A DNA stretch of 64,000 bases, taken from IMG/VR virus record IMGVR_UViG_3300036820_000001, one strand, 5' to 3'. This DNA comes from a virus. Numbering within the stretch: position 1 is the first letter of the stretch; every line of letters starts with the position of its first letter. A model generated the notes under the pieces. It did not search any database and was not told the origin of the DNA. It saw only the letters and a list, made by a program, of their open reading frames with translations. Below are positions 12,079 through 53,440 of this stretch, piece after piece. A program made the translations under genes and the position numbers.

Positions 12079-12350
12079 GCACTGCGGCCGACTGGGAGGT
12101 CTACGCGGGCGTCAACGCCAAGGGCGCGCTGGTGCTGACGTTCAAGTGCCCGGACTGCGGCGAGCAGGTGACCGCGGTCAAGAGCGGCGACGGGTCGGTG
12201 CCGCTGCACATATTGGTTAAGCAGCTGTTCATCGGCGGGATTCGCGCGGGGGACATCGTGGCGAGCGCCCAGCACCTGGACAGCGAGCACGTGTGCGACC
12301 CGTTCGCCAATGACGGCATCATCCACGTGAGCGGCGAGGACGAGCCGTGA
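12075..12350 (+). CDS. hypothetical protein (CPDC zinc-ribbon-like)
   Basis: GTGA overlap start inside track ORF 11892. Confidence 0.5.
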   Translation: MSTAADWEVYAGVNAKGALVLTFKCPDCGEQVTAVKSGDGSVPLHILVKQLFIGGIRAGDIVASAQHLDSEHVCDPFANDGIIHVSGEDEP

Positions 12351-19590: not shown

Positions 19591-19651
19591 CCAGCTGGAA
19601 TACCTGACGGTCGTCAAGGGTTATACGTAGTGCAAGGCCGCGGGGGCGGCC
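19591..19651 (+). promoter_or_regulatory. family A promoter/operator element, copy 1, plus leader hairpin
   Basis: CCAGCTGGAATACCTGACGGTCGTCAAGGGTTATACGTAGTGCAAGG followed by the GGCCGC-gggg-GCGGCC hairpin. Starts right after the TAG at 19588-19590. Confidence 0.6.
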
Positions 19652-19665
19652 GGATCGGGGGAGAC

Positions 19666-19794
19666 ATGCTGAGCGTCCTGCACCGGGTTCACGAGAGCGT
19701 CTGCAACGTCGTTGACCGCGTTCTCTACGCCATCGAGGGCGACACCTCGGGTCTCCCGGCCGAGCTGGGGCAGCTCGCTGCGGCGGCGCTATGA
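19666..19794 (+). CDS. hypothetical protein (42 aa)
   Basis: GGGGGAG RBS and ATG. Ends in an ATGA overlap. Below the track cutoff. Confidence 0.4.
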   Translation: MLSVLHRVHESVCNVVDRVLYAIEGDTSGLPAELGQLAAAAL

Positions 19795-19958
19795 CCGCCA
19801 GGTTCACGGCGCTGATGACCGCGGACGGACGCAAGTACGGCGTCTGGGACTCCGAGCGGAAGGAGTACCGGGGCGATCTCGCGTTCTTCACCGAGTCCGA
19901 GGCGGACACCGCCGCGGACCTACTGAATGAGGTTCTATGCCAAGGGGGAACGGTATGA
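19791..19958 (+). CDS. hypothetical protein (55 aa)
   Basis: ATGA-coupled at both ends. Confidence 0.45.
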   Translation: MTARFTALMTADGRKYGVWDSERKEYRGDLAFFTESEADTAADLLNEVLCQGGTV

Positions 19959-20167
19959 CTGCTTACCTGACGGAAGAGGTCGCTGAGGTGCCTGTGCGCA
20001 AGGGCGCGCTCGTCACCGAGCTACCGCCGGACAACCCGGAGGTGTGCGACGCGTGCCAGGCACCGGCGGCGTTCCGCGTGACGGTGACGGCCGGCGACCT
20101 GACGTTCTGCGGCCATCACGCCCAGGCGCACGGGTTCACGCAGTCGCACGCCAGCTGGAATACCTGA
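19955..20167 (+). CDS. hypothetical protein (CDAC..FCGHH motif, DUF7455-like)
   Basis: ATG inside track ORF 19937. The stop lies inside family A copy 2. Confidence 0.55.
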   Translation: MTAYLTEEVAEVPVRKGALVTELPPDNPEVCDACQAPAAFRVTVTAGDLTFCGHHAQAHGFTQSHASWNT

Positions 20168-20197
20168 CGGTCGTCAGGCGTTACACTAGACGCAGGG
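20151..20197 (+). promoter_or_regulatory. family A promoter/operator element, copy 2
   Basis: CCAGCTGGAATACCTGACGGTCGTCAGGCGTTACACTAGACGCAGGG. Contains a perfect CTGACG-gt-CGTCAG inverted repeat. Confidence 0.6.
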
Positions 20198-20290
20198 GGC
20201 AACAGAACAGCGGAGAAACCGGCGGAATCGCAACCACAGCGCCACATAAGTCATAACCAGCGCAAAGTGGGACGCCCGCCGGAAGATGGC

Positions 20291-20366
20291 GGCGATCGGG
20301 AGCGGTCTCCTGGTCAATGGCCGGCGCTAGGGTACGCGCCATCCGGTTCGACACCGGCGTTCGCCA
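20291..20366 (+). ncRNA. tRNA-like structured element (non-canonical; speculative)
   Basis: Acceptor-like stem GGCGATC/GTTCGCC (6 of 7 bp). A T-arm, CCGG-TTCGACA-CCGG. The D-arm and anticodon-arm equivalents have wrong loop sizes. Confidence 0.15.
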
Positions 20367-20370
20367 CTGA

Positions 20371-20400
20371 GGGGAGGGCGTACAGCCCTCCCCGGGGAGG
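20371..20400 (+). promoter_or_regulatory. three-part SD / anti-SD hairpin ahead of ATG 20406
   Basis: GGGGAGGGC-gtaca-GCCCTCCCC-GGGGAGG. The middle arm can pair either with the upstream copy or with the real RBS. Confidence 0.4.
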
Positions 20401-20405
20401 TAGTC

Positions 20406-20717
20406 ATGCGGGATCTCGACATGTCCGACGTGGAAGGGGACGCGCAGCGGATGAGGGACGGGTGGACGACGTTCACGACGGTCAACGGGGTCCGGCACGC
20501 GGTGCCGCCGACCGGGCCGTGCGCGACGTGCGGGAAGGGGCACTGCCGGGAGAGCCACCAGGGGTCGTTCTGCGGCGGGTACCACTGCCCCAACTGCGAC
20601 GCGCGGTCGGAGGTGCCGTTCGACTGCCGGTGCGGGGCCGGGCGGGCCAACCACGTGCTCCTGATCCCCTGCGAGGTCAAAGAGTGCGACTGTCATCTAC
20701 CCAGCTGGAATACCTGA
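20406..20717 (+). CDS. Cys/His-rich (zinc-binding-like) protein
   Basis: 103-aa track ORF with several CxxC and CxC pairs. The stop lies inside family A copy 3. Confidence 0.6.
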   Translation: MRDLDMSDVEGDAQRMRDGWTTFTTVNGVRHAVPPTGPCATCGKGHCRESHQGSFCGGYHCPNCDARSEVPFDCRCGAGRANHVLLIPCEVKECDCHLPSWNT

Positions 20718-20763
20718 CGGTCGTCAAGGGTTATACATAGTGCAAGGGGGTCGCGGGGACCCC
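20701..20763 (+). promoter_or_regulatory. family A promoter/operator element, copy 3, plus leader hairpin
   Basis: CCAGCTGGAATACCTGACGGTCGTCAAGGGTTATACATAGTGCAAGG followed by the GGGGTC-gcggg-GACCCC hairpin. Confidence 0.6.
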
Positions 20764-20783
20764 AGCAGACGGGGGAAACAGAG

Positions 20784-21044
20784 ATGATCGGCTTCACCGC
20801 CACCGCCCAGGATGTCAATCTCCAGGCCGCGTTCGCGCGACTGCCGGGCCGGTTCGAGGGCTTCCTCGCCAGCCTGCAGCAGGCGGCGGATGAAGAGGCG
20901 CTGCGCCAGCTGGTGCCGTTCGGGTTCACCTCGACCACCCGCCGCATCGTCATCGCCAAGTTAGGGGGCCAAAGATGTTCAGTCACAGCCCGTACGTTGC
21001 GGGATACAGCTTCTGCGCCGACATTTACTGCCCGGCGTGCCTGA
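20784..21044 (+). CDS. hypothetical protein
   Basis: GGGGGAAACAGAG RBS region and ATG. The last 70 nt overlap the next gene. Confidence 0.45.
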   Translation: MIGFTATAQDVNLQAAFARLPGRFEGFLASLQQAADEEALRQLVPFGFTSTTRRIVIAKLGGQRCSVTARTLRDTASAPTFTARRA

Positions 21045-21412
21045 TCGACTCGATGATCGCACGGGGCAAGGCGAGCCCGGCGGCACGGGACATGGACGCC
21101 GAGGACGCGCTCGACATGATCGCCGCGGCCATCCCCGGACTCGACCGGATGGACGAGAAGTCGTTCGACAGCGGTGACTTCCCCAAGGCGATCCTGTCCA
21201 GCAGCGCGCACGGCGACTGCACCCCCGAGGACGGGTGCAGCGACCGGTGCTGCGGGTGCGGCGGGTTCCTGGGGACCGACTCGTGCTACCCGCAGCCGTC
21301 CTACGACGACTACGACCCCCACTCGGCCGAGAACGAACCGGAGTGGGATGATGCCTTCAGCGCGCGGTGGAGCACCGCGGGCACGCTGAGCGACGACGGG
21401 AGGCCGTTCTGA
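20975..21412 (+). CDS. hypothetical protein (Cys-rich, acidic)
   Basis: 145-aa track ORF after a GGGGGC RBS. Confidence 0.6.
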   Translation: MFSHSPYVAGYSFCADIYCPACLIDSMIARGKASPAARDMDAEDALDMIAAAIPGLDRMDEKSFDSGDFPKAILSSSAHGDCTPEDGCSDRCCGCGGFLGTDSCYPQPSYDDYDPHSAENEPEWDDAFSARWSTAGTLSDDGRPF

Positions 21413-21621
21413 TGTCGGAGAAGGACACACGGCGCGTGTTCGTCGCGCTGATGAACTACGCGGACCTGAAGACGCGCGAGTCGCGGCGGCGCACGTACGC
21501 GGGGCCGGACATGGCCGAGACGCGCAAGGGTCTGCGGCAGGACGCCAGGGCGGCCGAGAACCTGGCTCGCGACATTCGCGCCGGTCACATCGCGCTAGTG
21601 GACCTGAGGGAGTTGTTATGA
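21412..21621 (+). CDS. hypothetical protein
   Basis: TGATG overlap start inside track ORF 21367. Confidence 0.55.
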   Translation: MSEKDTRRVFVALMNYADLKTRESRRRTYAGPDMAETRKGLRQDARAAENLARDIRAGHIALVDLRELL

Positions 21622-21803
21622 CGCGCAGGCGGAGGATGGGGTGCGGCTACTACGTCGCCCTGTGGATCATGTCGTGGGTGCTGTGCATGGTGCTGGCACC
21701 GGTGGTGTGGGGACTGTGGGCGATGGGGGTGCCCATCATGTGGGGGGCCACGATCGTGGTGGCGACGGTGTTCCTGACGGTGGCGTTCCGGCGGAAGCGG
21801 TAG
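21618..21803 (+). CDS. small membrane protein (two helices)
   Basis: ATGA-coupled. Hydrophobic segments YYVALWIMSWVLCMVLAPVVWGLWAMGVPIMWGATIVVATVFL. Confidence 0.6.
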   Translation: MTRRRRMGCGYYVALWIMSWVLCMVLAPVVWGLWAMGVPIMWGATIVVATVFLTVAFRRKR

Positions 21804-21849
21804 CCTGGGGAATGCTTGACAGTCGTCAGGAGTTATAGATAGCGTAGGG
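21804..21849 (+). promoter_or_regulatory. family A promoter/operator element, copy 4 (diverged)
   Basis: CCTGGGGAATGCTTGACAGTCGTCAGGAGTTATAGATAGCGTAGGG. TTGACA, then an 18-nt spacer, then TAGCGT. Confidence 0.55.
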
Positions 21850-21871
21850 CGCAACAGAGAGGTGGGGGAAC

Positions 21872-22099
21872 ATGGAGCGCGACGACAGGCCGGTGCGGAC
21901 CGCGGTCATCCAGCGGAGCGACGCGGGCTACCCGTCCGCGGAGACGGTGGAACGGTACATGCCCAGCGGCTACCAGGTCAGCGGCGTCTCGGACACCGAG
22001 GTGGTCATCAGCGGGAAGGACTACGCCGGGTGGACGATGGACAGCTACGTCATCCCGCGCCTGGCGTCGGGCATGATCTTCGCCAGGGAGGTGCTCTGA
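21872..22099 (+). CDS. hypothetical protein
   Basis: GAGGTGGGGG RBS. 75 aa. Confidence 0.6.
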   Translation: MERDDRPVRTAVIQRSDAGYPSAETVERYMPSGYQVSGVSDTEVVISGKDYAGWTMDSYVIPRLASGMIFAREVL

Positions 22100-22329
22100 T
22101 GACCGACTTCATCGACGCCATCATGGCGTTCGAGAGCGGCGAACTGGATGACGCGGGCATCATCGAGCTATTCCAGCACCTGGTGGACAGCGGCGTGGCG
22201 TGGCAGCTGCAGGGCAGCTACGGGCGCACTGCGACGGCGCTGGTCGAGGCCGGCCTGGTCACGTGGCCGGAGCCTGAGGGCGCTGGCGAGCACGATCCGG
22301 CTGGCCACGGCATGGGGGGAACGTCTTGA
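22099..22329 (+). CDS. hypothetical protein (conserved phage ESGELDD..LFQHLVDSG motif)
   Basis: TGATG-coupled. I recall this motif from small actinophage proteins (unverified). Confidence 0.6.
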   Translation: MTDFIDAIMAFESGELDDAGIIELFQHLVDSGVAWQLQGSYGRTATALVEAGLVTWPEPEGAGEHDPAGHGMGGTS

Positions 22330-22808
22330 GCATCATCGAGAGTGTCTACGTCATCTACGATGCGGACGTCGAGGGCGAGCACTCGGAGCAGCTGATCGAG
22401 CAGATGAGCCCGGAGCACCATCTGCCCGCTGGCTACGGCGACGGCGAGGGTCCGTACGGGCGCGAGGGCAGGGAGCCGCGGCAGGCGGTCGGGGCCAAGT
22501 TCAAGCGCACCGAGGGCAACGACCAGTTCGAGTACGAGGTGCCCGAGGGCACCGTCACCGCGCACGCAAAGTGGGTGGCGGAGCTGACCGAGGCCGAGTG
22601 GCGGCTGTTCGCGGACGCGTACCTCATCGAGCTAGACGAGCACGGCGCACCGGCCGAGTGTGAGCAGACGCTGGGGTCGCTGACCGAGTACGGCATCATC
22701 CCGGCTGTGTCGGTGGATCTGGCTGAGGGGTGGCAGGACGGGCGCACGCATGCCGAGGTGGTCCACGCGGGCGCGTACGTCAGCATCTCGGGGGAGGAGC
22801 CGGAATGA
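22326..22808 (+). CDS. hypothetical acidic protein
   Basis: TTGA overlap start. 160 aa. Confidence 0.55.
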   Translation: MSIIESVYVIYDADVEGEHSEQLIEQMSPEHHLPAGYGDGEGPYGREGREPRQAVGAKFKRTEGNDQFEYEVPEGTVTAHAKWVAELTEAEWRLFADAYLIELDEHGAPAECEQTLGSLTEYGIIPAVSVDLAEGWQDGRTHAEVVHAGAYVSISGEEPE

Positions 22809-23236
22809 CCAACAGGGTGACGCTGACCGGGGTCCTGGTCAAGCACGTCGGGCACTCGCTGCGGCCGGGCACGGAGTACGCCGTCCCGGCTGGCCGGGTG
22901 TACGGTACGCCGCGGCTGCAGTTGTGGTGCGAGAATTGCAAGGCGCGGGTGTGGGACGAGCCTGTGGGCGCGCAGCGCGAGAGCAGCAGGAGCAACCGGG
23001 TTGACGGGCCGGTGGCCGTGGGCGATCTTGAGTTCGCCCGGGGCGACAAGGTGACCGGCGTGTCCAACGACGGCCGGACGGTCGTGACTGGGCACATCGC
23101 CCACTTCGAGCGCGACGGCGGTGTCATTTACGCCTGCGTGGGCTACGAGCGGCAGCGGGTCGGCATGTTCGCGACCTTGCTGGACGTGACCCGGCTGTCG
23201 ATCGCCCACCCGGAACTGCCGTGCGGGCGGGCATGA
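22805..23236 (+). CDS. hypothetical protein
   Basis: ATGA-coupled start inside track ORF 22730. Confidence 0.6.
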   Translation: MTNRVTLTGVLVKHVGHSLRPGTEYAVPAGRVYGTPRLQLWCENCKARVWDEPVGAQRESSRSNRVDGPVAVGDLEFARGDKVTGVSNDGRTVVTGHIAHFERDGGVIYACVGYERQRVGMFATLLDVTRLSIAHPELPCGRA

Positions 23237-23709
23237 GGACCGAGGCCGACCGCGAGCGCCGCAAGAGGTTCTTGTGGGACATTATCGCGGCTGGGTGGAC
23301 GACGGGCAGCGTGTCGGACGAGTACGCAGAGCTATGCGGAAGGGGCAGGGCGGCAGTGGACATGGGATACGAGAACGGCGACTCGATCGTCTACGCGGAA
23401 TCGGTGGACAAGCGGATTGACGCCATCCAGAGTGCCGACGTGATCGATGACGATGAGGCCGACGAACTGCAGTGGCTGCTGCAGTTCCGGCAGGACGCAC
23501 GCGACGCGGTGCACGTGTGGGAGCCGCCGGTCAGCTTCGTCTGCGAGACGTACTGGGACAAGTACGCCGAGGAGAAGGCTGTTGACATCTACGGGCGCGA
23601 GGCGGTGGAGTCGGTCTACTTCAACCTGGCGGGGTACTCGGCTGACCTCATGGAGGGTTACGAGGAGATCGACTTCAACGGCACCACGTACTACGGGGAC
23701 GGCCGCTAG
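23233..23709 (+). CDS. possible ArdA-like anti-restriction protein
   Basis: Acidic 158-aa protein. The C-terminus (YFNLAGYSADLMEGYEEIDFNGTTYYG) resembles the ArdA C-terminal pattern. Low-confidence product call. Confidence 0.55.
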   Translation: MRTEADRERRKRFLWDIIAAGWTTGSVSDEYAELCGRGRAAVDMGYENGDSIVYAESVDKRIDAIQSADVIDDDEADELQWLLQFRQDARDAVHVWEPPVSFVCETYWDKYAEEKAVDIYGREAVESVYFNLAGYSADLMEGYEEIDFNGTTYYGDGR

Positions 23710-23756
23710 CCAGCTGGAATACCTGACGGCCGTCAACCGTTATACCTAGTGCAAGG
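23710..23756 (+). promoter_or_regulatory. family A promoter/operator element, copy 5
   Basis: CCAGCTGGAATACCTGACGGCCGTCAACCGTTATACCTAGTGCAAGG. The core TGACGGCCGTCA is a perfect 12-bp palindrome. Confidence 0.6.
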
Positions 23757-23787
23757 CCGCGGGGGGTCCGGGGCCGGGGGAGGGAAA

Positions 23788-24153
23788 ATGACCGACCGCT
23801 TCTTCTACATCATGAGCGAGGCGCACACGTCGGCTGTGGTCTACCGGAAGTCCGGCCCGTTCGTCGTCGCCCAGTCGGCTGAGTACCAGACCGCGCGGAA
23901 CATCGCCCGGAGCGAGTCGCGCGAGACTTCTGGCAGCTACACGGTCATTCCGCCCGCCGACTCTAAGATCCAGCCCGAGACGTTCGGCAACGGCGTGTCG
24001 GAGGGCTACGTGGCGGAACTGGCCGAGGACGCCCTGCGGGTGCTGGCGGAGGTGACGCGGTTATGGCCCGGAGCATCGAGGAGGTCAGGGAGCAGCTGGA
24101 GCGGGAGGCCGCGGCCGGGTTCGCGGCCATGGGGCTGGACCCGGAGACCATGA
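23788..24153 (+). CDS. hypothetical protein
   Basis: GGGGGAGGGAAA RBS. The last 91 nt overlap the next ORF and look non-coding. Confidence 0.5.
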   Translation: MTDRFFYIMSEAHTSAVVYRKSGPFVVAQSAEYQTARNIARSESRETSGSYTVIPPADSKIQPETFGNGVSEGYVAELAEDALRVLAEVTRLWPGASRRSGSSWSGRPRPGSRPWGWTRRP

Positions 24154-24430
24154 TGTACCCGTTCGGGCGCGAGCAGGCGGAGGAGACGGACCGGGATGTC
24201 TACGGTCGCTGCCGGATGCGCCTGGGGGCGAGTCAGCGGAAGAATACTGCGAGACGCTGCCCCAGTTCATCTGCAGTGACGGGCTGATCGGGTGCAACGA
24301 CTGCTGCCAGCCCATGTATTACTGCCTGAACGACGACAACTGGCACCACGTGGACCCGGAGCAGGAGTGCTTTCTAATAGCGTGCGAGTGCAAGGAATGC
24401 CTCGCTGAGATGATGGGGGAAATGGCATGA
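24063..24430 (+). pseudogene. Cys-rich protein gene split over two frames (frame break at G5 run 24224-24228)
   Basis: Frame 0 has high GC3 up to ~24230. After that, frame -1 carries the coding signal (AEEYCETLPQFICSDGLIGCNDCCQP...CECKEC) but has no start codon upstream of Met 24314. Confidence 0.4.
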
Positions 24431-25020
24431 CGCAGCGAACAGAGCAGTTCCCGATCCAGCCGAGCCCGGAGCCGCCGCCACGGCGGCACTGGAAGCGGTG
24501 GGTAGCGGGCGGGGCGGTCGGCGTGGTCGTCCTGGTGGCGGGCATCTCGATCGCCAACGCGGGCAGCCACCCGGCAGCGCCAGCAGCGCCGAGGGCGACT
24601 ACATCGGCCCCGGCCATGCCTTCGGCCACGCTAGCGGCACCAGTGCCGTCCACGGCGGCACCAGCGCCCGCTGCGCCTCCGCCACCGGCCAACACGGCAC
24701 CGGCGATGACGAGCGACCAGCAGCAGGCTGTGCAGTCGGCGCAGGGCTACCTGACGGACGGCGAGGGGTTCAGCTACGCAGGTCTCCTGCAGCAGCTGAC
24801 TTCGGCCGCGGGCGACGGGTTCAGCAACGCCGACGCGACGTTCGCCATCAACTACCTCAACCCCAACTGGGATCAGCAGGCGGTCGAGTCGGCCCAGGGC
24901 TACCTGGACGACGGCGAGGGGTTCAGCAAGTCCAGCCTGCTCCAGCAGCTGACCTCCACCTACGGCGAGGGCTTCACCAACGCCCAGGCCGAGTACGCCA
25001 TCAGCAAGACGATGGGCTAG
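24427..25020 (+). CDS. membrane-anchored protein with two Ltp-like (host cell surface-exposed lipoprotein) repeats
   Basis: N-terminal TM helix, Pro/Ala linker, then two units Q-Q-A-V-x-S-A-Q-G-Y-L..GEGFS..LLQQLTS..G(D/E)GF(S/T)NA(D/Q)A.(F/Y)AI matching the Ltp repeat pattern. Confidence 0.75.
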   Translation: MTQRTEQFPIQPSPEPPPRRHWKRWVAGGAVGVVVLVAGISIANAGSHPAAPAAPRATTSAPAMPSATLAAPVPSTAAPAPAAPPPPANTAPAMTSDQQQAVQSAQGYLTDGEGFSYAGLLQQLTSAAGDGFSNADATFAINYLNPNWDQQAVESAQGYLDDGEGFSKSSLLQQLTSTYGEGFTNAQAEYAISKTMG

Positions 25021-25029
25021 GAGACGCAG

Positions 25030-25164
25030 GTGAGGACGCGGTACCGGTTCGTGGCCCGTATCGGCAGGCACTACGTGTGGGAGAGCGTCCTGCCGATCGG
25101 GCCGAGGGAGTCGCGGCACGAGCGGATCGTGTGCGGCGTGGATTGGTTCTGGGGGCGACGGTGA
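25030..25164 (+). CDS. hypothetical protein (44 aa)
   Basis: GTG start. Ends in a GTGA overlap with the next gene. Confidence 0.3.
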   Translation: MRTRYRFVARIGRHYVWESVLPIGPRESRHERIVCGVDWFWGRR

Positions 25165-25900: not shown

Positions 25901-26476
25901 GTGCTCATCACCGACTCAGACCTCGGTCGCGGCCAGGAGGGCGACACCGAGGGCGCGGTTGACTCCGACGCTGCCACCGGGGCGGACACCGAGTCGCGTC
26001 AGATCATCGTGGCGGACGCGGACAGCGGCGTCGCCATCTCCGGGTCGGCCAGCGTCTTCGTCCTGGCTTACATCGCGTCGGACATCGACGGCGGCACCGG
26101 GGCCGAGGCCTGGAGCACGGCGGCGGGCAAGAGCGACGCGGACGCTGGCACCGGGGCGGACGTGCACGCGCTGCTGTACGCGCCAGCGGACGTGGACGCG
26201 GCCACCGGGGCTGAGGAGCAGTGGTACGCCATCGGGGTGTTCCCGTTCCCGCCACCGTGGCTGTTCGGCCCCAGTGGCGGGCTGCGCGTCGTCTGGCACT
26301 ACGAGATGCGGCGGGACATGGCCACGCTGGAGTTCCCGTCCGACTCGGACGCGGGCGGCGGGGCTGAGGGCAACGGGCCGACCGCCGTCGTCACGCAGCT
26401 GGTAGCCGGGGTCGAGGTGACCTGCGCCAAGGCCAGGGAGGCTGCGCTGGTGCTCCTGGTCGAGGAGATGGCGTGA
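25901..26476 (+). CDS. stand-alone copy of the C-terminal module of the following 1311-aa protein
   Basis: 191 aa that align along their whole length with aa ~1098-1311 of 26473..30408 (QEGDTE, DIDGGTGAE, LYAPA, FPPPWLF.PSGGLRVVWH). Confidence 0.65.
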   Translation: MLITDSDLGRGQEGDTEGAVDSDAATGADTESRQIIVADADSGVAISGSASVFVLAYIASDIDGGTGAEAWSTAAGKSDADAGTGADVHALLYAPADVDAATGAEEQWYAIGVFPFPPPWLFGPSGGLRVVWHYEMRRDMATLEFPSDSDAGGGAEGNGPTAVVTQLVAGVEVTCAKAREAALVLLVEEMA

Positions 26477-29400
26477 CAACCAGGGTCGGGGCGTTCCTCA
26501 ACCCGTCTGCGATGGGGTTCGCGGCGTTCACCGACTGGACGAGCGCGGCCAGCACATGGAGCGGCTGGACGGGCACCGGCACCCCCACGGTCACCCGGTC
26601 GTACCAGGGCACTGGACCCTGGACCATCGGCTCTGATATGACGGCGATGATCGCGGCCGGGTGCAAGATCCTCATCAGCATGACCCCGGCCTACAACCCG
26701 GTCAGCTCGACCGACTACGCCAATATCCAGTCGTTCATGGAGGCGCTGGTTGCGGCCGGGGCCGACTGCGACGTGTGCATCTGGTCGGAGCCGTACTACA
26801 ACGGGCTGACGTCGGCCCAGTACATCGCCGCGGTGCAGTACTACGGGCCTGCGATCCGGCCGTATTACCCAATGTCATTCCAGACCGCCAACGGGTCGGT
26901 GGTGCACAACAGCGAGGCTTCGTACTATCCCGGTGACGCTTACGTGGATAAGGTCAGCACGGACTACTACGCGTCTGGCTACGTGGCCGGGGACAGGCTC
27001 ACGACCATTGCTGCTGTCGCGTCGGGGGCGTCGCCGCCCAAGCCGTTCTGCCTGTGGGAGATCAACGGGTCACCGGCCAGCACAGGCCAGTCGCAGGCTA
27101 ATGTCACCGCGTTCTTCGAGTACGTGCAGTCGTTCATGCTGGGGCAGGTCGCGGCGCAGCTTCCGATCGGTGATATCTGCCTGTTTAACGGCGCGCCTGG
27201 TGAGAGCGTGTTCGGCTGCGACGCCATCGAGGAGGCGAGCTTCGAGGGCGGCAACGGCAACTGGCTGGCGGCAGGCAACACCTCGGTTGCCAACAGCTCT
27301 GCGCAGCATCATTCTGGTGCTGACTGCCTGGCGGTCACCTGCACGGGATCGACCCCGGCTCAGATCGCGTCGTGCATCGCCACCGCCTACGCCACCGAGA
27401 TGCTGCCGGTCGCGGTCGGGGACAGCGTTGACGGCGCTATATGGGTGCGCGCAGCGGCCACGTCGCGCACGGTCACCTGCCAGGTCCAGTGGTACACATC
27501 GACCGGCACGGAGATCAGCGTCACGGCTGGGACTGGCGTGGCGGACTCCACCTCGGCGTGGACGCAGGCTGTCATATCCGGGGCGGTCGCTCCGGCGACG
27601 GCGGCTTGGGCGCGCCTGTTCCCGGCTATCGCTAGCGCCGCCGCGAGCGAGGTCCACTACTTTGACGACGCCGAGCTGCGGGACGTCGAGGGGGACAACC
27701 CCAATAACACGACCACCATCGAGTTCGGCTGGGACTACCGGATCGCCTTGTTCCAAGCGCTGTACGAGGCGCTGAACACGCAGCCGCCGCTGGCGCAGAC
27801 GCCGGCGTCCCCTGGCAGGGCTGTCCCTGGCGCGGCCACTCCTGGGCTTATTCCGTCGTCGTCCAAGTCCAGCTCGGACAGCGGCACCGGGGCTGAGTCG
27901 CAGCGGATAGCCACCGAGCGCCTGTTCAGCTCGGACAGCGGCACCGGGGCTGAGACGGGGATTATCCCGCTGCCCAAGATGGCGACGCTGGTCGAGAACT
28001 TCAGGGCCAACGACTTCAGCGCGGTGTGGGGCAACTCGTACGGCACGTACAGCTGGTCACCGGGCAGCGCGGCCATCCAGTGCGACACGGGCTACAGCTC
28101 TGCCCTGGGCAGCACCGTCAACTACGACCTGACCAGCTCATCGATCTACGTGGGCATCGCTCCGTACATCGCGACCAGCTCAGCGACGTTCCTGTTCCTG
28201 ACCAGCAGCACCGGCAACGCGATTATGTTCGGGCAGACGGGCGTTAACCTGGCTGTCTACAAGGCAGTCGCTGGCGTCCAGACGTCGCTATTCACGACCA
28301 CGTACAACGCGACTAGCCATGCCTGGTGGCGGATCAGGGAGTCCGCGGGCACGGTGTTCTTCGACACCGCGCCGGACGGGGCGACATGGACCAACCAGTA
28401 CAGCACGGCGGACACCACGTTCTCTGGGACGGTCCTCACCGCGCTGCAGGTTGACATCCAGCCTGGCGACTACGGGTCGGACCCGACTGGCACCACGTAC
28501 CTGTACGCGGTCAACTCGCCCAGGCTGCAAGCATCGACGGACGCGGGCACCGGGGCGGAGACTTACGTCCTGACGGCTCGCACGCCGAGCGCGGACAGCG
28601 GCACCGGGGCTGACGCGCAGAGCATGACCGCCAGGGTGCCCAGCGCTGACGCTGGCACTGGTCTGGAGGCGCAGAGCCTGATCGCCAAGGTGCCCAACCC
28701 GGACAGCGGCACCGGGGCCGAGACGCAGACGGTCATCGAGTCCCTGGCCAGCGCCGACGCTGGCACTGGCTTGGAGGCGCTGGCGCTGACGGCTAGCCTG
28801 GCCAGCGCAGACGCTGGCACCGGGGCCGAGCTGCAGGCGCTGACGATTCCCAGCGCAGACGCGGGCGCTGGTACGGAGACGCAGGCGCTTACGGCCAGGC
28901 TGCCCAGTTCCGACGCGGGCACCGGTGCGGACGCGCAGAGCGTCCGGCTGCCCAGCTCTGATATTGGTACCGGGGCCGAGCTGCAGGTGCTCACGGCGAG
29001 GGTGCCCAGCTCTGATAGCGGTACTGGGGCCGAGCAGCAGGGCATCGCGCTGGCCAGCTCGGACAGCGGCACTGGGGCTGAGGCCCAGGCTGTGGCTGCC
29101 ACCGCGCTCGTGTCCGACGTGGACAGCGGCGTGGGCGTTGACACGGAGAGTGTCAGCAGCGGCTCGATGCTCGTCAGCGACACGGACGCGAGCTTCACCA
29201 GTTACGAGGTGGAGTCGGGCCTCGGGCGCATCCCCAGCTCGGACGCGGCCACTGGAGCTGAGGTCCTGGCGATTCGCGTCGTCGTGTTCGACGGCGGCAC
29301 CGGGTCCGAGTCGCAGTCGTCTCGGGCGTCGATGTCCAACGCGGACTCCGGCACCGGCGCGGACGCTCAGGTCCTGACGCTGGCGTCGTCGGACACTGGC

Positions 29401-30408
29401 ACCGGGTCTGAGCTGCAGGCCACTGCCGACTCCATATCCGATGTGGACGCCGGGACCGGCGCGGACGTGCAGGTTCTCCGGCTGGCCGACGTGGACGCTG
29501 GCACGGGTGCGGACACTGGCCTGCTGACGGCGCTGGCGCGAGACACGGACGCGGGGCTGGGCGCGGACGCGGATACGCTGATGGCGCTGGAGACTGGCGC
29601 TGACGCCGGGCTGGGCGTGGACGCTGGCTTGCTGCGCGCGCTGGAGTCCGACCTTGACGCCGGGCTGGGCGCGGACGCGGCCACGCTGCCGGCTGTGCGG
29701 GTCAGGGACGCCGACGCGGGTACCGGTACGGAGACGCAGTTCTACGAGCCGTCCGGCACGATGTTCATCGTCAGCGCCGACTCGGGGCGCGTGCAGGAGG
29801 GCGACACTGAGGCCGCGGTCGGCTCGGACTTCGCCACCGGGGCGGACGCGCAGTCCCCCATGGTCGTGGTCCCGCCACCGGGCGCGGACCTGGCTACGGG
29901 GGCTGAGTCGGGCAGCTTCGTCGTCCTGGTCAACGCGCTGGCGGACATCGACGGCGGGACCGGGGCTGAGTCGTGGGCCACTGCGGGAGGCAGGGCTGAC
30001 CTCGATAGCGGCGATGGCGCGGACTCGCAGCTGTCGCTTTACGCACCGGCTGGCGCGGACGGCGGCACTGGCGGCGAGCCCGGCGCTTACCAGCTGGGGA
30101 TCTGGGCGTTCCCGCCGCCGTGGCTGTTCAATCCGAGCGGCGGGCTGCGGGTCGTCTGGCACGAGGGGCAGCCGGATGAGGTGGTGGTCCGCGAGTGGGA
30201 GGGCGAGTTCACCCGCCACCTGGACGCGGCGCAGCGGTTCTACGAGATCATCAGGGACTCGGACTCGCTGGAGTTCGTGTCGGACGCCGACGCGGCGGCT
30301 GGGAGCGACGTGAGCGGGCGGACGGCCAACGTCGCGGTGTGCGTGTTCGGGCCTGATATGGTGCAGCTGGTCAGCGGCGTGCGGATCGTCTGCGGGGTGC
30401 CCAGCTAG
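26473..30408 (+). CDS. fibre/depolymerase-like protein: GH26-like hydrolase + CBM4_9-like + LamG-like + S-x-D-x-G-T-G repeats + C-module
   Basis: YYPGDAYVDKVSTDYY and LWEINGS are GH26-like. FEGGNGNW..VHYFDDAEL is CBM-like. HAWWRIRESAGTVFFDTAPDGATW is LamG-like. About 30 repeat cores. Confidence 0.85.
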   Translation: MTTRVGAFLNPSAMGFAAFTDWTSAASTWSGWTGTGTPTVTRSYQGTGPWTIGSDMTAMIAAGCKILISMTPAYNPVSSTDYANIQSFMEALVAAGADCDVCIWSEPYYNGLTSAQYIAAVQYYGPAIRPYYPMSFQTANGSVVHNSEASYYPGDAYVDKVSTDYYASGYVAGDRLTTIAAVASGASPPKPFCLWEINGSPASTGQSQANVTAFFEYVQSFMLGQVAAQLPIGDICLFNGAPGESVFGCDAIEEASFEGGNGNWLAAGNTSVANSSAQHHSGADCLAVTCTGSTPAQIASCIATAYATEMLPVAVGDSVDGAIWVRAAATSRTVTCQVQWYTSTGTEISVTAGTGVADSTSAWTQAVISGAVAPATAAWARLFPAIASAAASEVHYFDDAELRDVEGDNPNNTTTIEFGWDYRIALFQALYEALNTQPPLAQTPASPGRAVPGAATPGLIPSSSKSSSDSGTGAESQRIATERLFSSDSGTGAETGIIPLPKMATLVENFRANDFSAVWGNSYGTYSWSPGSAAIQCDTGYSSALGSTVNYDLTSSSIYVGIAPYIATSSATFLFLTSSTGNAIMFGQTGVNLAVYKAVAGVQTSLFTTTYNATSHAWWRIRESAGTVFFDTAPDGATWTNQYSTADTTFSGTVLTALQVDIQPGDYGSDPTGTTYLYAVNSPRLQASTDAGTGAETYVLTARTPSADSGTGADAQSMTARVPSADAGTGLEAQSLIAKVPNPDSGTGAETQTVIESLASADAGTGLEALALTASLASADAGTGAELQALTIPSADAGAGTETQALTARLPSSDAGTGADAQSVRLPSSDIGTGAELQVLTARVPSSDSGTGAEQQGIALASSDSGTGAEAQAVAATALVSDVDSGVGVDTESVSSGSMLVSDTDASFTSYEVESGLGRIPSSDAATGAEVLAIRVVVFDGGTGSESQSSRASMSNADSGTGADAQVLTLASSDTGTGSELQATADSISDVDAGTGADVQVLRLADVDAGTGADTGLLTALARDTDAGLGADADTLMALETGADAGLGVDAGLLRALESDLDAGLGADAATLPAVRVRDADAGTGTETQFYEPSGTMFIVSADSGRVQEGDTEAAVGSDFATGADAQSPMVVVPPPGADLATGAESGSFVVLVNALADIDGGTGAESWATAGGRADLDSGDGADSQLSLYAPAGADGGTGGEPGAYQLGIWAFPPPWLFNPSGGLRVVWHEGQPDEVVVREWEGEFTRHLDAAQRFYEIIRDSDSLEFVSDADAAAGSDVSGRTANVAVCVFGPDMVQLVSGVRIVCGVPS
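28531..29735 (+). repeat. in-frame tandem array of S-x-D-x-G-T-G-x-E/D units (approximate bounds)
   Basis: Periodic GAC-GCN-GGC-ACC-GGG-GCN-GAG cores every ~39-48 nt. Imperfect and coding. Confidence 0.8.
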
Positions 30409-32329: not shown

Positions 32330-35300
32330 ATGGCGTGGTCACGCCTCCAGTCCAACAGCGCGACCAACAGCAGCGGGAACGCGTCGGTCGCGTATACCAG
32401 CAACCTGACGTCCGGCTCGGTGATGATCGCCATCGTCGGCCTCAACAGCGATGATGCGGTTCTTGGTACTGCGTGCACGGTCAAGGATAGTAACAACAAT
32501 GCATTCACGTTCCTTGGCGGTAACGTAGCGGCTGGGTGGGACTTCCTCGGGGTGTATGTGCTGGCCACCCCGTCCGGGGACGCTGGTACTAAGCCGACTA
32601 TTACCGGCACATTCAATGTCACGGATAACTTCGGCTGGGTTATCCTCGTGCAGGAGATATCAGGGATTAGCGTCACACCGGACGGCACCCTGGCAGGCAA
32701 TAGCGGGAGCGGAACGCCTGCGACGCTGGGTGCGTACTCGGACACCGCGTCTAATGAATACCTGCTCGTGGTCTACGGTGACGCGGCTGGTAACGCGACG
32801 GCGACTACGCCGACTGGCTACACGGCTGACCCATCCAATAACAGCGGCAGCTTCAACTTCGACCTGTTTGTGTTTTATAAGAACTCGACCGGTGGCACTG
32901 AGTCCGCGTCCATTACCACGAACACGTCTGGTGACTGGTCTACCACGGTCGTGGCTCTTAAGCTGGCTGGCGGGACGTCCATCTCCAGCTCGGATAGCGG
33001 GACTGGGTCTGAGCTAGGCACCGTGTCTGGCCCGGTTGATGTCACGTGGAAGCCGACGACGCTTAACGGCACCAACACTCTGACGTCCACGTCGTTCACG
33101 CCCAGCCCTAATGTGCTGCTGGTCGCCATCGGCGCGGTATGTAACGGCAACGGACTGACCACTACCAGCTTCACGCTGACGGGGACGGGGCCTCAGACAT
33201 GGACCCAGCTTCTGTTTGCTAACGATGGGTCCGGTGCAGGTGGCGGGTCAGCCGTATGGGTGTCGGACTCGGGGTCTTCCCCGGCCAGCCAGACTGTTAC
33301 TGTTACTGCGCTGCCGTCCACGGTCACGGACTGTGACGTCATGATCTTCGAGGCTGTGGGCGCTGCTGACGCGGCTGCGCAGATAGCTCAGGCGGCGCTG
33401 AATGGGCAGACTGCGACTGGCACGCAGTCCGGTATCACCATTACCCCGGCGCAGACGGGATCGATGCTGGTGGGTGCCTGTGGTCAGGCACCGGCGACTG
33501 CGTTTGTGGTGGATGGCGTAATCACTGACACTTTTGCCGCGCCTGCCAAGGGCGCCAATAACGGGTATGCGACGGCGTTCTACGCCATAGCCAGGACGAC
33601 GGCCGGGGTTGCGGTTACCTTTGGCGCGACCGCTACTCGTAATAAGTCAGCCTTCACTGGCGTAGAGATCATCCCGCCGGCTCCGTCGCCATTGCCGATG
33701 ACGGCGGCGAGTCCTGGCAAGGCTGTGCCTGGCGCAGTTAGCCCGGGAGTTATCCCGGTGTCAGGCGGCGGATCGACTCCCAAGTCCAGCTCGGATGCGA
33801 GTGCCGCGGGGGCGGACGCGCAGGCGCTGACCGCGAGGGTGCCGAGCGCGGATACGGGCACCGGGGCCGAGCTGCAGGGCGTTCACGAGATCATCCCGGA
33901 AGCTGGGCTGGACACCGGCGCTGGCCTGGAGACGCAGGCGCTCACGGCCAGGGTGCCCAGTACGGACGCTGGCACTGGGACCGAGCTGCAGGCGCTCACG
34001 GCGTTCGTGCACGACTCGGACAGCGGCACGGGCCTGGAGACGCAGAGCGTCGTCCAGTTTAACCAGGTGGCATCGCCTGACTCTGGGGCCGGGCTAGAGG
34101 CGCAGGGCGTCATAGCATCCGTATCCGGCTCGGACACGGGCACTGGAGCGGACGCGCAGGCGCTGGGCGTCGCTGGGGCGGACAGCGGGTCGGGCGCTGA
34201 CGCCGGGCAGGTGCGAGCAGCCCTGTTGTCGGCTGACGTTGGCACTGGAGCTGACGCCCAGCAGATCGGCGTGGCGAGTTCTGACAGCGGAGCGGGGGCG
34301 GATGGTACCGGGACGGTATCTGCCCGGCTGAGTTCGGCTGACACCGGCACCGGTGCTGAGGCGCAGTACGTGCTGGTCACCTCGGCTGATGCTGGGACGG
34401 GGGCTGAGACTGGCGTTATCGTTGCGACGCTGGCCGGTGCCGACTCTGGGTCTGGGACTGAGGCTCAGTACGTCGGGGTGGCCAGCGCTGACGCAGGCAC
34501 CGGCCAGGAGGCTGGGCAGGCTAACGCAGTCGTGCTGGCCGCGGACTCGGGTACCGGGGCTGAGGCGCAGATCATCGCGGTGGCTTCGTCTGACGCTGGG
34601 CTGGGTGGTGACGCTGGCACTGCGACTGAGACCATCCCGGTGGCCAGCGCCGATACTGGGCACGGTGCTGAGACCGGCGTTGCCGCGGCCAGCCTGGCGG
34701 GATCGGACAGTGGCACCGGGGCGGACGCCCAGGGCATCGGCCTGTCTGCGCTGGACGCTGGCACTGGGGCTGAGACTGGCGTCGTCACGGCTGCCCTGGC
34801 TGGCCAGGACGCGGGCACCGGATCTGATGCGCAGGCAGTATTGCTGGCGTCGGCTGACGCGGGCACTGGCGCTGACGCCGGGCAGTCGTCGGCCAGGCTG
34901 GCGGCAGCGGACAGCGGGTCGGGCGCTGAGCTGCAGATCGTCGGGGTGTCCTCGGCCGACGCTGGGTCTGGGCTGGACGCTGGCGCTGAGGTCAGCACCA
35001 CACCGGTGTCTGGCAGCGACGCGGGGTCTGGGGCTGAGGCGCAGTTTGTCGGCGTCAGCGGGCTGGACGCGGGCACCGGGGTGGAGGCGGTCAGCGACCT
35101 CGACCGGCTGAACTCGCTGGACACCGGGCAGGGCACGGAGGCGCAGTTCGTCGGCGTCCGTGGGCTGGACGCGGGGACTGGAGCGGACGCGGGCTCTGTC
35201 TTCGAGACCATCCCGGTGGCCGGGTCGGATACCGGCGCTGGCGCTGAGGCTCAGGTCATCCTGGTGGCTAGCGCGGACGCTGGCACGGGTGCGGACGCGG

Positions 35301-52124: not shown

Positions 52125-52231
52125 CGGTACTCCTTGTGGGAGGGCCGTTTCGGGGGCATGGAGACGGCAGGGGAGAATTATGTTTGACATGAGTTATATC
52201 GGCTAGCGGGAGAACTGACTTGCGCTTCACG

Positions 52232-53413: not shown

Positions 53414-53440
53414 AGCGTTCTAGTCGGTGGAGGGGGCAGG

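Follow-up and report, generated by a model that had tools for sequence, protein, structure and literature searches.

Candidate promoter–operator cassettes ahead of small-gene clusters in a phage encoding an ECF-like sigma factor

Introduction

The locus considered here raises the question of why nearly the same element should recur ahead of one cluster of small genes after another, and of which sigma factor would read it. The stretch analysed, referred to as the window, comprises 64,000 nucleotides of the IMG/VR virus record IMGVR_UViG_3300036820_000001, and belongs to a phage of ~140 kb with a host of the high-GC Gram-positive (actinobacterial) type. Seven copies of a promoter-plus-operator cassette of ~45 bp precede its small-gene clusters. 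An earlier note on this DNA had described six of them as co-regulated early promoters of the sigma-70 type, each carrying an operator for a dimeric regulator. As judged from their sequence, the elements are very probably promoter–operator cassettes. However, rather than plain host sigma-70 early promoters, they probably constitute a transcription switch run by the phage, since their invariant bases fit an ECF promoter and the phage holds an ECF-like sigma factor of its own.

Copies of the element and their genetic context

Five copies start at 19591, 20151, 20701, 21803 and 23710 on the + strand (W1 to W5), and a diverged one at 52424 (W6). The 47-mer quoted in the earlier note for four of these sites is found without mismatches at 19591 and 20701 and with three mismatches at 23710, where shuffled sequences predict none. 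The copy at 20151, on the contrary, is identical over its first 26 nt, beyond which the sequence differs (GGCGTTACAC-TAGACGCAGG) and 1 nt is missing, and is therefore a member of the family rather than an instance of that 47-mer. The two copies described as diverged are genuine, with PWM scores of 40.6 (W4) and 36.5 (W6) against a background maximum of 9.5. All six sites thus belong to the family, to which a degenerate seventh copy at 53394 (W7, score 23.7), absent from the earlier note, has to be added; in the related contigs L007, L015, and L156, the orthologous site is occupied by a full copy. Four metagenomic contigs of related phages carry related copies, and the comparison below covers 16 copies drawn from five contigs.

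W1 (19591–19637) contains GGAAT at 19597–19601, the palindrome TGACGGTCGTCA at 19605–19616, GTT at 19620–19622, and TAGTGC at 19628–19633. The same order is found in W2 (20151–20196; GGAAT from 20157, palindrome at 20165–20176, GTT at 20180–20182), which is 1 nt shorter before its TAGACG, and in W3 (20701–20747; GGAAT from 20707, palindrome at 20715–20726, GTT at 20730–20732). W4 (21803–21849) bears GGAATG from 21809, TTGACA-N18-TAGCGT, the palindrome TGACAGTCGTCA at 21817–21828, and GTT at 21832–21834, fitting the sigma-A and ECF patterns alike, while W5 (23710–23756) has GGAAT from 23716, a palindrome at 23724–23735, and GTT at 23739–23741. In W6 (52424–52470), TGAAT starts at 52426, and the palindrome TGACGACTGTCA at 52435–52446 accompanies TTGACG-N18-TAACGT, with the -10 at 52458–52463. 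Finally, W7 (53388–53430) keeps GGAATA-N17-GTT (53394–53419), but its palindrome now reads TCACAATTGTAA and its TAG is 3–4 nt closer.

All copies lie on the coding strand, with a Shine-Dalgarno sequence and a start codon following 21–245 nt downstream. The claim that every copy starts at or over the stop codon of the upstream gene stands for W1 to W5, where these codons adjoin or fall within the element. Indeed, the 5' parts of W2 and W3 encode the SWNT* C-termini of the genes at 19937–20167 and 20406–20717, the two ORFs for which this ending had been noticed. It does not extend to W6, which is read through by a conserved small SWIM-zinc-finger ORF (52220–52516) and whose annotated neighbour (51405–52190) is on the opposite strand. 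Likewise, a GC-rich leader hairpin and a ribosome-binding site had been described; the latter is present downstream of all copies, whereas hairpins follow W1 (GGCCGC-GGGG-GCGGCC, 19636–19651), W3 (20747–20763), and W5 (23755–23775), only slightly above shuffles (z about -1.6 each), and GC-rich hairpins are missing at W4 and W6.

The operons led by the cassettes consist of short genes, mostly orphans, all on the + strand. W1 precedes three genes (19666–20167) of 42, 55, and 76 aa, the last one encoding a DUF7455 protein. The W2 unit (20197–20717) starts with a 205-nt untranslated leader—spanning 20200–20405 and bearing a hairpin at 20371–20393—followed by the Cys-rich 103-aa gene at 20406–20717. 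Four genes follow W3 (20784–21803) and five follow W4 (21872–23709), while the W5 unit (23788–25164, its downstream end being uncertain) includes the gene of an Ltp-type surface lipoprotein (24427–25020).

Conserved bases and promoter type

GGAAT and GTT, which sit outside the hexamers named in the earlier note, are present at a fixed N18 spacing in 16 of 16 copies from the five contigs, with a purine at position 6 in 15 of them. This count carries an ascertainment bias, as the copies L015 a and d and those of L069 and L156 were found by patterns containing both motifs; nevertheless, GGAAT-N18-GTT is also conserved in all 11 copies found without those bases in the query (W1 to W5, W7, three from L007, and L015 b and c). 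The remaining invariants of the 16 copies are a symmetric spacer palindrome, T.AC-N4-GT.A, and a TA located 17–18 nt after the TTGAC-like hexamer. GGAAYR-N16-18-GTT occurs seven times in the window versus 1.37 expected, and six of these occurrences correspond to copies of the element, in each case with N17 and on the + strand. The resulting GGAAT(R)-N17-GTT coincides exactly with the SigH/SigR (ECF) consensus of actinobacteria: GGAAYR-N17-GTT for SigH of M. tuberculosis (PMC4803200) and GGAAT-N18-19-GTT for SigH of C. glutamicum (PMC10012870).

W7 favours the ECF reading: it has lost TGAC/GTCA and its TAG is shifted, yet the ECF-like bases are retained. A start ~7–10 nt past its GTT would leave a leader with a Shine-Dalgarno sequence, whereas a sigma-A start would fall inside or past the latter. 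From these sequence comparisons, an ECF-type core is modestly favoured for the cassettes. Four relatives share another conserved site, GGAATG-N12-CGGTAnCAT, ahead of a 452–527-aa gene, and this second site is also found in the present phage, just past the window end (L020:11257). Since it holds GGAATG without GTT at the ECF spacing, GGAAT might be the site of another factor.

The sigma-70 assignment of the earlier note suits W4 and W6 (TTGACN-N18-TAnnnT), which are the only matches to TTGACN-N16-18-TAnnnT in the window. It is weaker for the rest of the clustered copies, where the -10 is TAGTGC or TAGACG, lacking the T at -7 that W4 preserves, and CTGACG is the -35 in four of the five. This T is the most conserved base of the actinobacterial -10 element (consensus TAnnnT). 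Among the 16 copies, it is missing from 12 (e.g., TAGTGC, TAAGTG) and kept in four, W4, L007 a and c, and L156 a, which have proper sigma-A hexamers. The copies may hence be open to a sigma-A or a dual sigma-A/ECF reading.

The palindrome and its candidate binding proteins

TGAC-N4-GTCA occurs seven times versus 1.1 expected, six of them inside the copies. As the earlier note had stated, it is perfect over 12 bp in W5 (TGACGGCCGTCA), and the cores of W4 and W6 are exact reverse complements. The half-sites are conserved symmetrically, with positions 10 and 19 relaxed and 11/18 and 12/17 invariant, and in the relatives the palindrome is found at varied positions around promoters, in L153 as a pair 52 bp apart. 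Both features back the proposal that the element contains an operator to which a dimeric protein would bind, the palindrome behaving in these comparisons as a putative operator. AA at positions 3–4 and TT at positions 25–26 are also related by the dyad, so that part of GGAAT...GTT could represent an extended operator.

The first candidate for operator binding, a plausible one, is an HTH_17 DNA-binding protein (50963–51232, + strand), whose gene is found in every relative with the palindrome. A weaker second candidate is a 136-aa protein (55184–55594, + strand) with two HTH-like segments and sub-threshold GntR/HTH_11 matches, observed only in the phage of the window and in L007. The product of gene 12956, also put forward in the earlier note, bears no DNA-binding signature.

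An ECF-like sigma factor of the phage

A gene that had gone unnoticed, at 56307–57215 (+ strand), belongs to a string of same-strand genes and follows W6 at a distance of 3.9 kb and W7 at 2.9 kb. Its product of 302 aa, which appears to comprise σ2 and σ4 domains and a C-terminal extension of ~95 residues, matches TIGR02937 (sigma70-ECF) end to end with an E of 5.6e-4, although its 19.6 bits are below the curated cutoff of 42.9 and Pfam gave no match; a homologue reaches an E of 2.3e-8. An identical protein is named 'sigma24 family' by JGI. The AlphaFold model (pLDDT 79.6) retrieves from the PDB almost exclusively ECF sigma factors, including M. tuberculosis initiation complexes, E. coli sigmaE, AlgU, SigH, SigL, and SigW. 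On these profile and model-based matches, the protein is ECF-sigma-like, and is regarded as a diverged member. Homologues are encoded by all relatives examined (L008, L153, L154, L157, L158, and Magritte gp60). On the other hand, GGAAT-N18-GTT was found only within the subclade nearest to this phage, where the sigma is at least 71% identical, the other relatives having been read ~10 kb to either side of the sigma gene.

Alternative readings

A role for the repeat as a structured RNA element within transcripts, or as a terminator at gene ends, can be given almost no credence. The start of copies at or over upstream stop codons and the GC-rich hairpins after several of them are consistent with such a role; however, these hairpins are downstream of the core and differ in sequence besides being missing from two copies, and the palindrome would give a 2-nt loop, with no U-tract. 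On neither strand is the 47-nt core more stably folded than shuffled sequences (z +1.1, -0.4, and +0.6), a terminator scan of 17–27 kb returned one site versus 2.2 expected, away from all copies, and a comparison with Rfam that admitted E values of up to 5 gave no match. Orientation on the coding strand, the downstream Shine-Dalgarno sequence, the unstructured core, and the lack of a U-tract support the promoter-type element that the earlier note preferred. It is also very unlikely that the cassettes are chiefly recombination linkers, with a secondary promoter role, through which small-gene modules are shuffled, deleted, and inserted, as documented for the PeSL elements of T4-type phages (PMC2839356). 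Short orphan genes flanked by cassettes, the SWNT* C-terminus acquired by two unrelated ORFs, and the 81% identity between W1 and W5 over 97 nt, leader included, speak for it. So does the gene content of the relatives, which changes exactly at copy boundaries: gene 53441 is present after W7 and L015 d and absent after L007 c, and copy number and intervening genes vary among the window, L007, and L156. Nonetheless, recombination alone leaves unexplained the invariance of GGAAT, GTT, T.AC/GT.A, and TA amid drifting neighbours, as well as the fixed orientation and start-codon distance. The linker idea is compatible with promoter models, not exclusive.

Among these, all copies could be host sigma-A early promoters with a -35 (C/T)TGACR overlapping the palindromic operator, a spacer of 17–18 nt and a -10 TAG/TAAnnn, GGAAT/GTT then providing additional contacts, for instance as part of an extended operator, as a UP-like element or as the site of an activator. 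This reading seems unlikely, although it draws on W6 together with the orthologous copies of eight relatives—all TTGACR-N17/18-TAnnnT with the palindrome—to which the clustered copies are clearly homologous, on the universal TA at the -10 position, and on the four complete hexamers. In addition, the GGAATG of the second site is 14 nt upstream of its TAnCAT -10, about one helical turn nearer than in the main motif, as would suit an activator acting together with sigma-A. Against it stand the absence of the T at -7 from most copies, the CTGACG hexamers, the start misplaced at W7, a sigma-70 scan of 17–27 kb that found nothing, and the invariant G1, G2, T5, and G24, for which dyad symmetry offers no explanation. 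Alternatively, the cassettes could be read by the host stress sigma factor SigH/SigR (ECF12), placing the small-gene operons in its thiol-oxidative/heat-stress regulon and leaving the phage sigma for other promoters, such as those of late genes. In actinobacteria, promoters for sigma-A and for sigma-H are known to overlap (PMC6338062). The exact match to GGAAYR-N17-GTT in sequence and spacing, the confinement of the motif to one subclade while the phage sigma is found in all relatives examined, and a WhiB gene on L015 that indicates an actinobacterial host agree with this proposal, which is nonetheless improbable. In unstressed cells, SigH/SigR is normally kept inactive by its anti-sigma factor, and dependence on it would therefore render phage expression conditional. 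Moreover, the extended motif was found in none of the host genomes among the 185,579 species searched, cellular genomes being devoid of it, so that there is no evidence for mimicry of a particular host promoter, and the phage's own ECF-like sigma is encoded directly downstream of W6 and W7.

Proposed mechanism and comparison with known phages

The preferred reading attributes the cassettes to the phage sigma factor. In W1 to W5 and W7, the core would be an ECF promoter with GGAAT(A/G) as -35 and (C)GTT as -10, their spacer giving GGAAT-N18-GTT, read by the host core RNA polymerase carrying the phage ECF-like sigma. The 12-bp palindrome in the spacer would act as operator, where a putative dimeric repressor would block the polymerase. 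The invariant TA, often a GC-rich hairpin in the 5'-leader, the Shine-Dalgarno sequence, and the start codon would follow 3' of the core. W6, in turn, would combine this operator with an ordinary promoter for the host sigma-A (TTGACG-N18-TAACGT), functioning as early entry point. Both W6 and W7 lie upstream of the same-strand string that includes the sigma gene, and the host sigma would thus make the first phage sigma, which would then fire W7, in a positive feedback, and W1 to W5 as a middle class. We infer initiation of transcription at the elements, the sigma responsible for it, its timing, and the protein that binds the operator, and the full model, including the phage sigma as reader, is proposed tentatively, at somewhat less than an even chance. 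The proposed W6/W7 arrangement, whose starts are deduced here from sequence, has a precedent in the phages phiEco32 and 7-11, where promoters for the host sigma and for the phage sigma are both located upstream of the phage's own sigma gene (PMC4331800).

Probable Promoter–Operator Cassettes in the Window

Seven copies (W1–W7) of a cassette of approximately 45 bp lie on the plus strand at 19591, 20151, 20701, 21803, 23710, 52424, and 53394, the first five forming a cluster. The 47-mer quoted in the earlier note occurs exactly at 19591 and 20701, and with three mismatches at 23710, where chance would yield none. The copy at 20151 is also a member of the family, identical over its first 26 nt, but it diverges afterwards with a 1-nt deletion. 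The two copies described as diverged are likewise real, the one at 21803 being approximately 65% identical and the one at 52424 scoring 36.5 bits with a position-weight matrix (PWM) of the cassette. The five clustered copies reach 40–51 bits, a seventh element absent from the earlier note (W7, at 53394) reaches 23.7 bits, and the rest of the 128 kb of both strands stays at or below 9.5 bits.

Most of the details reported for these copies hold up, such as the SWNT* C-termini of two ORFs, the perfect 12-bp palindrome of copy 5, and the core of copy 4, which is the exact reverse complement of that of copy 6. Stop codons abut or overlap copies 1–5 as claimed, but at W6 the ORF 52220–52516 reads through. 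Similarly, leader hairpins of 6–9 bp follow copies 1, 3, and 5, but none follows W4 or W6. Including three copies from related metagenomic contigs (L015 c, L015 d, and L007 c), these hairpins differ in sequence and are each modestly more stable than shuffles (z −0.8 to −2.1). It is highly probable, judging from the sequence, that the copies are promoter–operator cassettes. The earlier interpretation as promoters with an embedded operator is thus retained, whereas its sigma-70 assignment is doubtful and a putative phage sigma gene was overlooked.

The other reading named for the motif, a structured RNA repeat or a terminator, does not describe the cassettes. On neither strand is the fold of the 47-nt core better than that of shuffles, the palindrome would leave a 2-nt loop with no U-tract, and a terminator scan is blank at the copies. 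ARAGORN and Rfam (E up to 5) returned no tRNA and no Rfam family. W2 is separated from its gene by a 205-nt non-coding leader (20200–20405; fold z −2.0). Within it are CCGGTTCGACACCGG, which resembles a tRNA T-arm, and, at 20371–20393, a strong hairpin, and it has no tRNA or Rfam match.

The genes following W1–W5 are small Cys-rich and orphan genes, including those for a DUF7455 protein and an Ltp-type lipoprotein. The latter (24427–25020, in the unit downstream of W5) bears a pair of Ltp domains (Pfam Lipoprotein_Ltp, E 1.5e-29), and superinfection-exclusion proteins are known from this family. Near W6, a zinc-finger motif of the SWIM type, CPCRGFQYHRRCRH (Pfam SWIM, E 0.01), is encoded in the small ORF 52220–52516. 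The ORF is conserved but uncalled in relatives, in which it ends immediately ahead of the W6-type promoter; the window version runs through W6 and past the following start codon. Compared with the relatives, the only clear reverse-strand gene (51405–52190, minus strand), encoding a protein with LysM and phage-tail-lysozyme domains, is an insertion that separates the HTH_17 gene from the SWIM ORF; its L015 homologue lies on the plus strand.

Conservation among Related Phages

The window (66–70% GC, almost all of its genes being on the plus strand) comprises tail genes, genes for two giant repeat proteins, and a replication module that encodes an SNF2 helicase, a DnaB-type helicase, a clamp-loader-like protein, and a Pol I-type polymerase. 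The giant ORFs (26473–30408 and 32330–36763; 1311 and 1477 aa) consist of dozens of degenerate 48/54/102-nt repeats coding for (S/A)D(S/A)GTGAE-like units, and a similar repeat protein is found in the relative L143 (1780–2535). The sigma-like protein described below is encoded identically in a 139.6-kb JGI contig and in fragmented Logan assemblies, so the window is part of an uncultured phage of approximately 140 kb. A WhiB gene in the related contig L015 points to an actinobacterial host. The nearest cultured relative is the 133-kb Microbacterium phage Magritte, with approximately 31–38% protein identity, and megablast of window positions 19–24 kb against 50,697 phage records gave no match. 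Searches seeded with the DNA polymerase, DnaB, and the sigma-like protein retrieved about a dozen related contigs; a protein-seeded search with a 524-aa upstream gene retrieved none.

Full copies of the motif are present in several of these contigs: three in L007/L144, four within 4.1 kb in L015 (recovered independently as a repeat family), two in L156, and one in L069. By synteny, full copies in L007 (after a DUF6283 gene), L156, and L015 (before the homologue of the gene at 53441) are positional orthologues of W7. In an alignment of 16 copies, GGAAT and GTT are present in all of them at a fixed distance of 18 nt, and the same invariant bases are found in the 11 copies detected without GGAAT/GTT in the search pattern, the remaining copies being ascertainment-biased because both blocks were part of theirs. 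A purine occupies position 6 in 15/16 copies, and TA lies 5–6 nt past GTT in 16/16 (2 nt in W7), with the bases between the conserved blocks drifting.

Beyond this lineage, no copy occurs among 185,579 cellular species, each represented by its genome; the single match, in Halochromatium, is due to chance, so that no host or prophage source emerged. A scan of IMG/VR for exact occurrences of GGAATRCYTGACRGYCGTCA gave five matches, all of them in a single coding sequence (EEYLTAVNAY) from phages of 60% GC that are unrelated, and attributable to chance. Among the matches listed in a degenerate-motif scan of metagenomes, most are due to chance; the only ones that look like relatives are L069 and perhaps L063. 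The PWM has no matches in the more distant relatives L146–L150, and the motif is absent from positions 25–75 kb of Magritte and from a further 3.7 kb read on the upstream side of a 101-kb relative contig.

Sigma Factor Specificity of the Cassettes

The invariant GGAAT(R)-N17-GTT of the cassettes corresponds letter for letter to the SigH/SigR consensus, which is GGAAYR-N17-GTT in M. tuberculosis (PMC4803200) and GGAAT-N18-19-GTT in C. glutamicum (PMC10012870), GGAAYR-N17-GTT and GGAAT-N18-GTT denoting equal spacing. The −35 element GGAAY is present in the 16 aligned copies, followed by a purine in 15 of them, and W6, outside that set, has TGAAT; the spacing is rigid, with N17 after the hexamer in 6/6 window matches and in all copies of the relatives (N18 in W6); and the GTT of the −10 element is preceded by C in 9/16. 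The window has seven occurrences of this pattern, where 1.37 would be expected, and six of the seven are cassette copies.

The sigma-70 reading of the earlier note placed a −35 element at (C/T)TGACR and a −10 element at TAGnnn, and the 17–18 nt between them fit such a promoter. However, the −35 element is CTGACG in four of the five clustered copies (W1, W2, W3, and W5), and the final T of the −10 element, the hallmark of actinobacterial TAnnnT elements, is present in just 4/16 copies. TAnnnT is found only in W4, W6, L007 a, L007 c, and L156 a, the −10 region of W1, W2, W3, W5, and W7 being TAGTGC, TAGACG, or TAGTCG. TTGACR occurs in W4, W6, and most copies of the relatives, with TTCACA in W7, and the combination TTGACN-N16-18-TAnnnT appears only twice on both strands of the window, at W4 and W6. 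W7 has lost TGAC/GTCA and its TAG is displaced by 3–4 nt, but it keeps GGAATA-N17-GTT; as its Shine–Dalgarno sequence falls inside the leader only if transcription starts shortly past GTT, this copy represents a natural dissection of the two sets of elements. Taken together, the sequences tip the balance, by no great measure, towards an ECF-type promoter class for the clustered copies. W6 seems to belong to a class apart: its orthologues in L008, L145, L153, L154, L156, L157, and L158 all have TTGACR-N17/18-TAnnnT and keep the palindrome or a near-palindrome, mostly without GGAAT/GTT, so W6 is best read as an entry promoter for the host sigma-A.

Which sigma factor reads the ECF-type class is a separate question. 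A phage-encoded factor is a tentative answer, to which we give rather less than even weight; its homologues also occur in relatives where GGAAT-N18-GTT was not found within the approximately ±10 kb read around the sigma genes. Recognition by the host SigH/SigR, whose consensus the cassettes carry, is a live alternative. Alternatively, GGAAT could be recognized by some other factor that acts together with sigma-A, a reading prompted by a second conserved promoter-like site, GGAATG-N12-CGGTAnCAT, which shares GGAATG and has no GTT at the ECF spacing. This site is followed by a long CA-rich leader and precedes a gene of 452–527 aa, itself located before RecA; it is found in this phage at L020:11257 (~64279, just past the window end) and in four relatives (L154:13561, L156:17562, L157:18484, and L158:12045).

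A Putative ECF-Like Sigma Factor Encoded by the Phage

The candidate for a phage-encoded sigma factor is the product of 56307–57215. Sequence resembling the σ2 and σ4 domains was first noticed by eye in the L007 homologue of this gene (56298/56307–57215). Pfam detects no sigma factor among 80 window ORFs and gives this one no Sigma70_r2 or Sigma70_r4 match, PHROGs also misses it, and a profile search of the family against PDB sequences returned nothing. Its 38 metagenome homologues are unannotated or “hypothetical” save two labelled “sigma24 family”, the name that JGI gives to a protein identical to the 56307–57215 product and to one homologue, and the only homologue from a cultured phage, gp60 of Magritte, is annotated as “DNA binding protein”. 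The protein aligns with the whole of the sigma70-ECF model TIGR02937 (4–164 of 165; E 5.6e-4), at 19.6 bits against a curated cutoff of 42.9. Among its homologues, P0035 reaches 33.8 bits and a 44%-identical protein has an E value of 2.3e-8, still below the curated cutoff.

In an AlphaFold model built with 24 homologues (pLDDT 79.6), the protein is predicted to hold the two-domain σ2 and σ4 architecture and an additional C-terminal domain of approximately 95 aa. Foldseek matches of this model in the PDB are almost exclusively ECF sigma factors, including M. tuberculosis initiation complexes, sigmaE, AlgU, SigH, SigL, SigW, SigK, and CnrH. The top matches align over approximately 196 columns with a probability of ~1.0 and E values of 6e-4 to 3e-2, and their low TM-scores (0.2–0.4) are due to the domain orientation and the extra C-terminal domain. 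The predicted fold thus suggests that 56307–57215 encodes a putative, diverged ECF-like sigma factor. The gene has no promoter-like gap of its own and lies in a same-strand gene string, 3.9 kb past W6 and 2.9 kb past W7.

The Spacer Palindrome and Its Candidate Regulators

The spacer of the cassettes carries a palindrome, TGAC-N4-GTCA. Its conservation follows the dyad (T.AC-N4-GT.A): T9, A11, and C12 and the partners G17 and T18 are found in 16/16 copies and A20 in 15/16, so that the pairs 11/18 and 12/17 are invariant, and the paired positions 10 and 19 are equally relaxed, at 12/16 each. The palindrome occurs in both orientations and is independent of a fixed promoter position. In L153 (2073–2136), two TGAC-N4-GTCA lie 52 bp apart around a TTGACA...TATACA promoter, one of them past its −10 element, as is typical of repressors that bind cooperatively, and in L158 the palindrome abuts the ribosome-binding site. 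From these patterns, the palindrome appears to behave as an operator for a dimeric protein.

The HTH_17 gene (50963–51232) is present in every palindrome-bearing relative, which makes its product a candidate binding protein from co-occurrence alone, and the product of 55184–55594 is a further candidate regulator on the same ground. The 55184 and 12956 proteins have no informative PDB sequence matches, and a homologue search with the former returned only itself. Just upstream of the HTH_17 gene, a near-palindrome (TTGACGGTTGTAA, 50913–50925) falls within the part of the preceding gene that encodes its conserved WLDGCK peptide, and the corresponding sequence in L153, TGACGGTTGTCA, is a perfect palindrome. 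Either an autoregulatory operator or mere coding conservation could account for it. The sole TGAC-N4-GTCA outside the copies (TGACCGCGGTCA, 12169–12180) is found in what seems to be coding sequence and can probably be ascribed to chance, since 1.1 would be expected.

A Model for the Transcription Program

These elements can be arranged in a regulatory cascade. The host sigma-A would fire W6, and the downstream gene string would then be expressed, including the gene for the ECF-like sigma factor. This factor would act on W7, in a feedback, and on W1–W5, turning on the small Cys-rich and orphan genes, whereas a dimeric repressor bound to the spacer operator could shut down both promoter classes. 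A bolder proposal, which we regard as rather improbable, is that the phage ECF sigma factor and the host SigH/SigR share a promoter code, so that either could fire the operator-gated cassettes, which would also serve as recombination linkers shuffling small host-takeover genes: a three-in-one module undescribed for actinobacteriophages.

Actinobacteriophages of 100–140 kb from this lineage are almost unstudied, Magritte being the sole cultured relative found. If the model is true, the lineage would have a sequence-defined transcription program (a host-sigma entry promoter, a phage ECF-like sigma factor, an ECF-type promoter class, and a shared operator), and a family labelled “DNA binding protein” or “hypothetical” would be re-annotated as a sigma factor. 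It would also provide orthogonal sigma, promoter, and operator parts for high-GC Gram-positive hosts, and raise the question of whether the phage taps the SigH/SigR stress regulon of its host. Should the cassettes instead be sigma-A promoters of the ordinary kind that carry an operator, the result is a routine one.

Comparison with Known Systems

Like the cassettes, the stoperators of Cluster A mycobacteriophages and the start-associated sequences of Cluster K are short conserved motifs repeated near actinobacteriophage gene starts. Stoperators, which are scattered over the genome and bound by a repressor, are asymmetric sites of 13–14 bp that occur independently of promoters, and start-associated sequences are located at the ribosome-binding region; to our knowledge, neither resembles GGAAT-N18-GTT or TGAC-N4-GTCA.

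The SigH/SigR (ECF12-type) promoters of M. tuberculosis, C. glutamicum, and S. coelicolor have the −35 element GGAAT(A/G), the −10 element (C)GTT, and the spacing in common with the cassettes. Unlike them, the elements described here are found in a phage rather than in a host regulon, their spacer carries a conserved 12-bp palindrome instead of free sequence, approximately 15 more downstream bases (A.A..TA) are conserved, and the sigma factor that reads them may be phage-encoded.

The PeSL (promoter-early stem-loop) cassettes of T4-type phages are an analogue, not a homologue. Both combine a promoter, a G/C-rich stem-loop (here after some of the copies), and a Shine–Dalgarno sequence, and are repeated before small orphan genes in a plastic region, with the gene content of relatives differing at cassette boundaries (PMC2839356, PMC4122927). 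The motif-encoded ORF ends also recall PeSLs (PMC2839356), and the gene differences at copy boundaries together with the shared SWNT* ends suggest recombination between cassette copies. However, PeSLs are strong sigma-70 promoters in an AT-rich context with terminator-grade stem-loops (PMC2839356, PMC4122927), whereas the hairpins here are downstream leader structures of modest stability.

Diverged sigma factors of their own are also encoded by phages phiEco32 (gp36), 7-11, and SPO1 (gp28) (PMC4331800, PMC13401047), and such phage sigma cascades share with the window a conserved promoter motif repeated ahead of non-structural genes. In phiEco32 and 7-11, the sigma gene is preceded by both host-type and phage-type promoters (PMC4331800), a layout mirrored by W6 and W7. 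The phiEco32 motif is unrelated, however, being a single extended −10-like TAATGTATA rather than the two-block ECF type. In contrast to these three phages, the host phylum is different, no anti-sigma or host shut-off factor was identified here, and an operator is embedded in each promoter. The present phage would pair a sigma factor of its own with a promoter class that has built-in operators.
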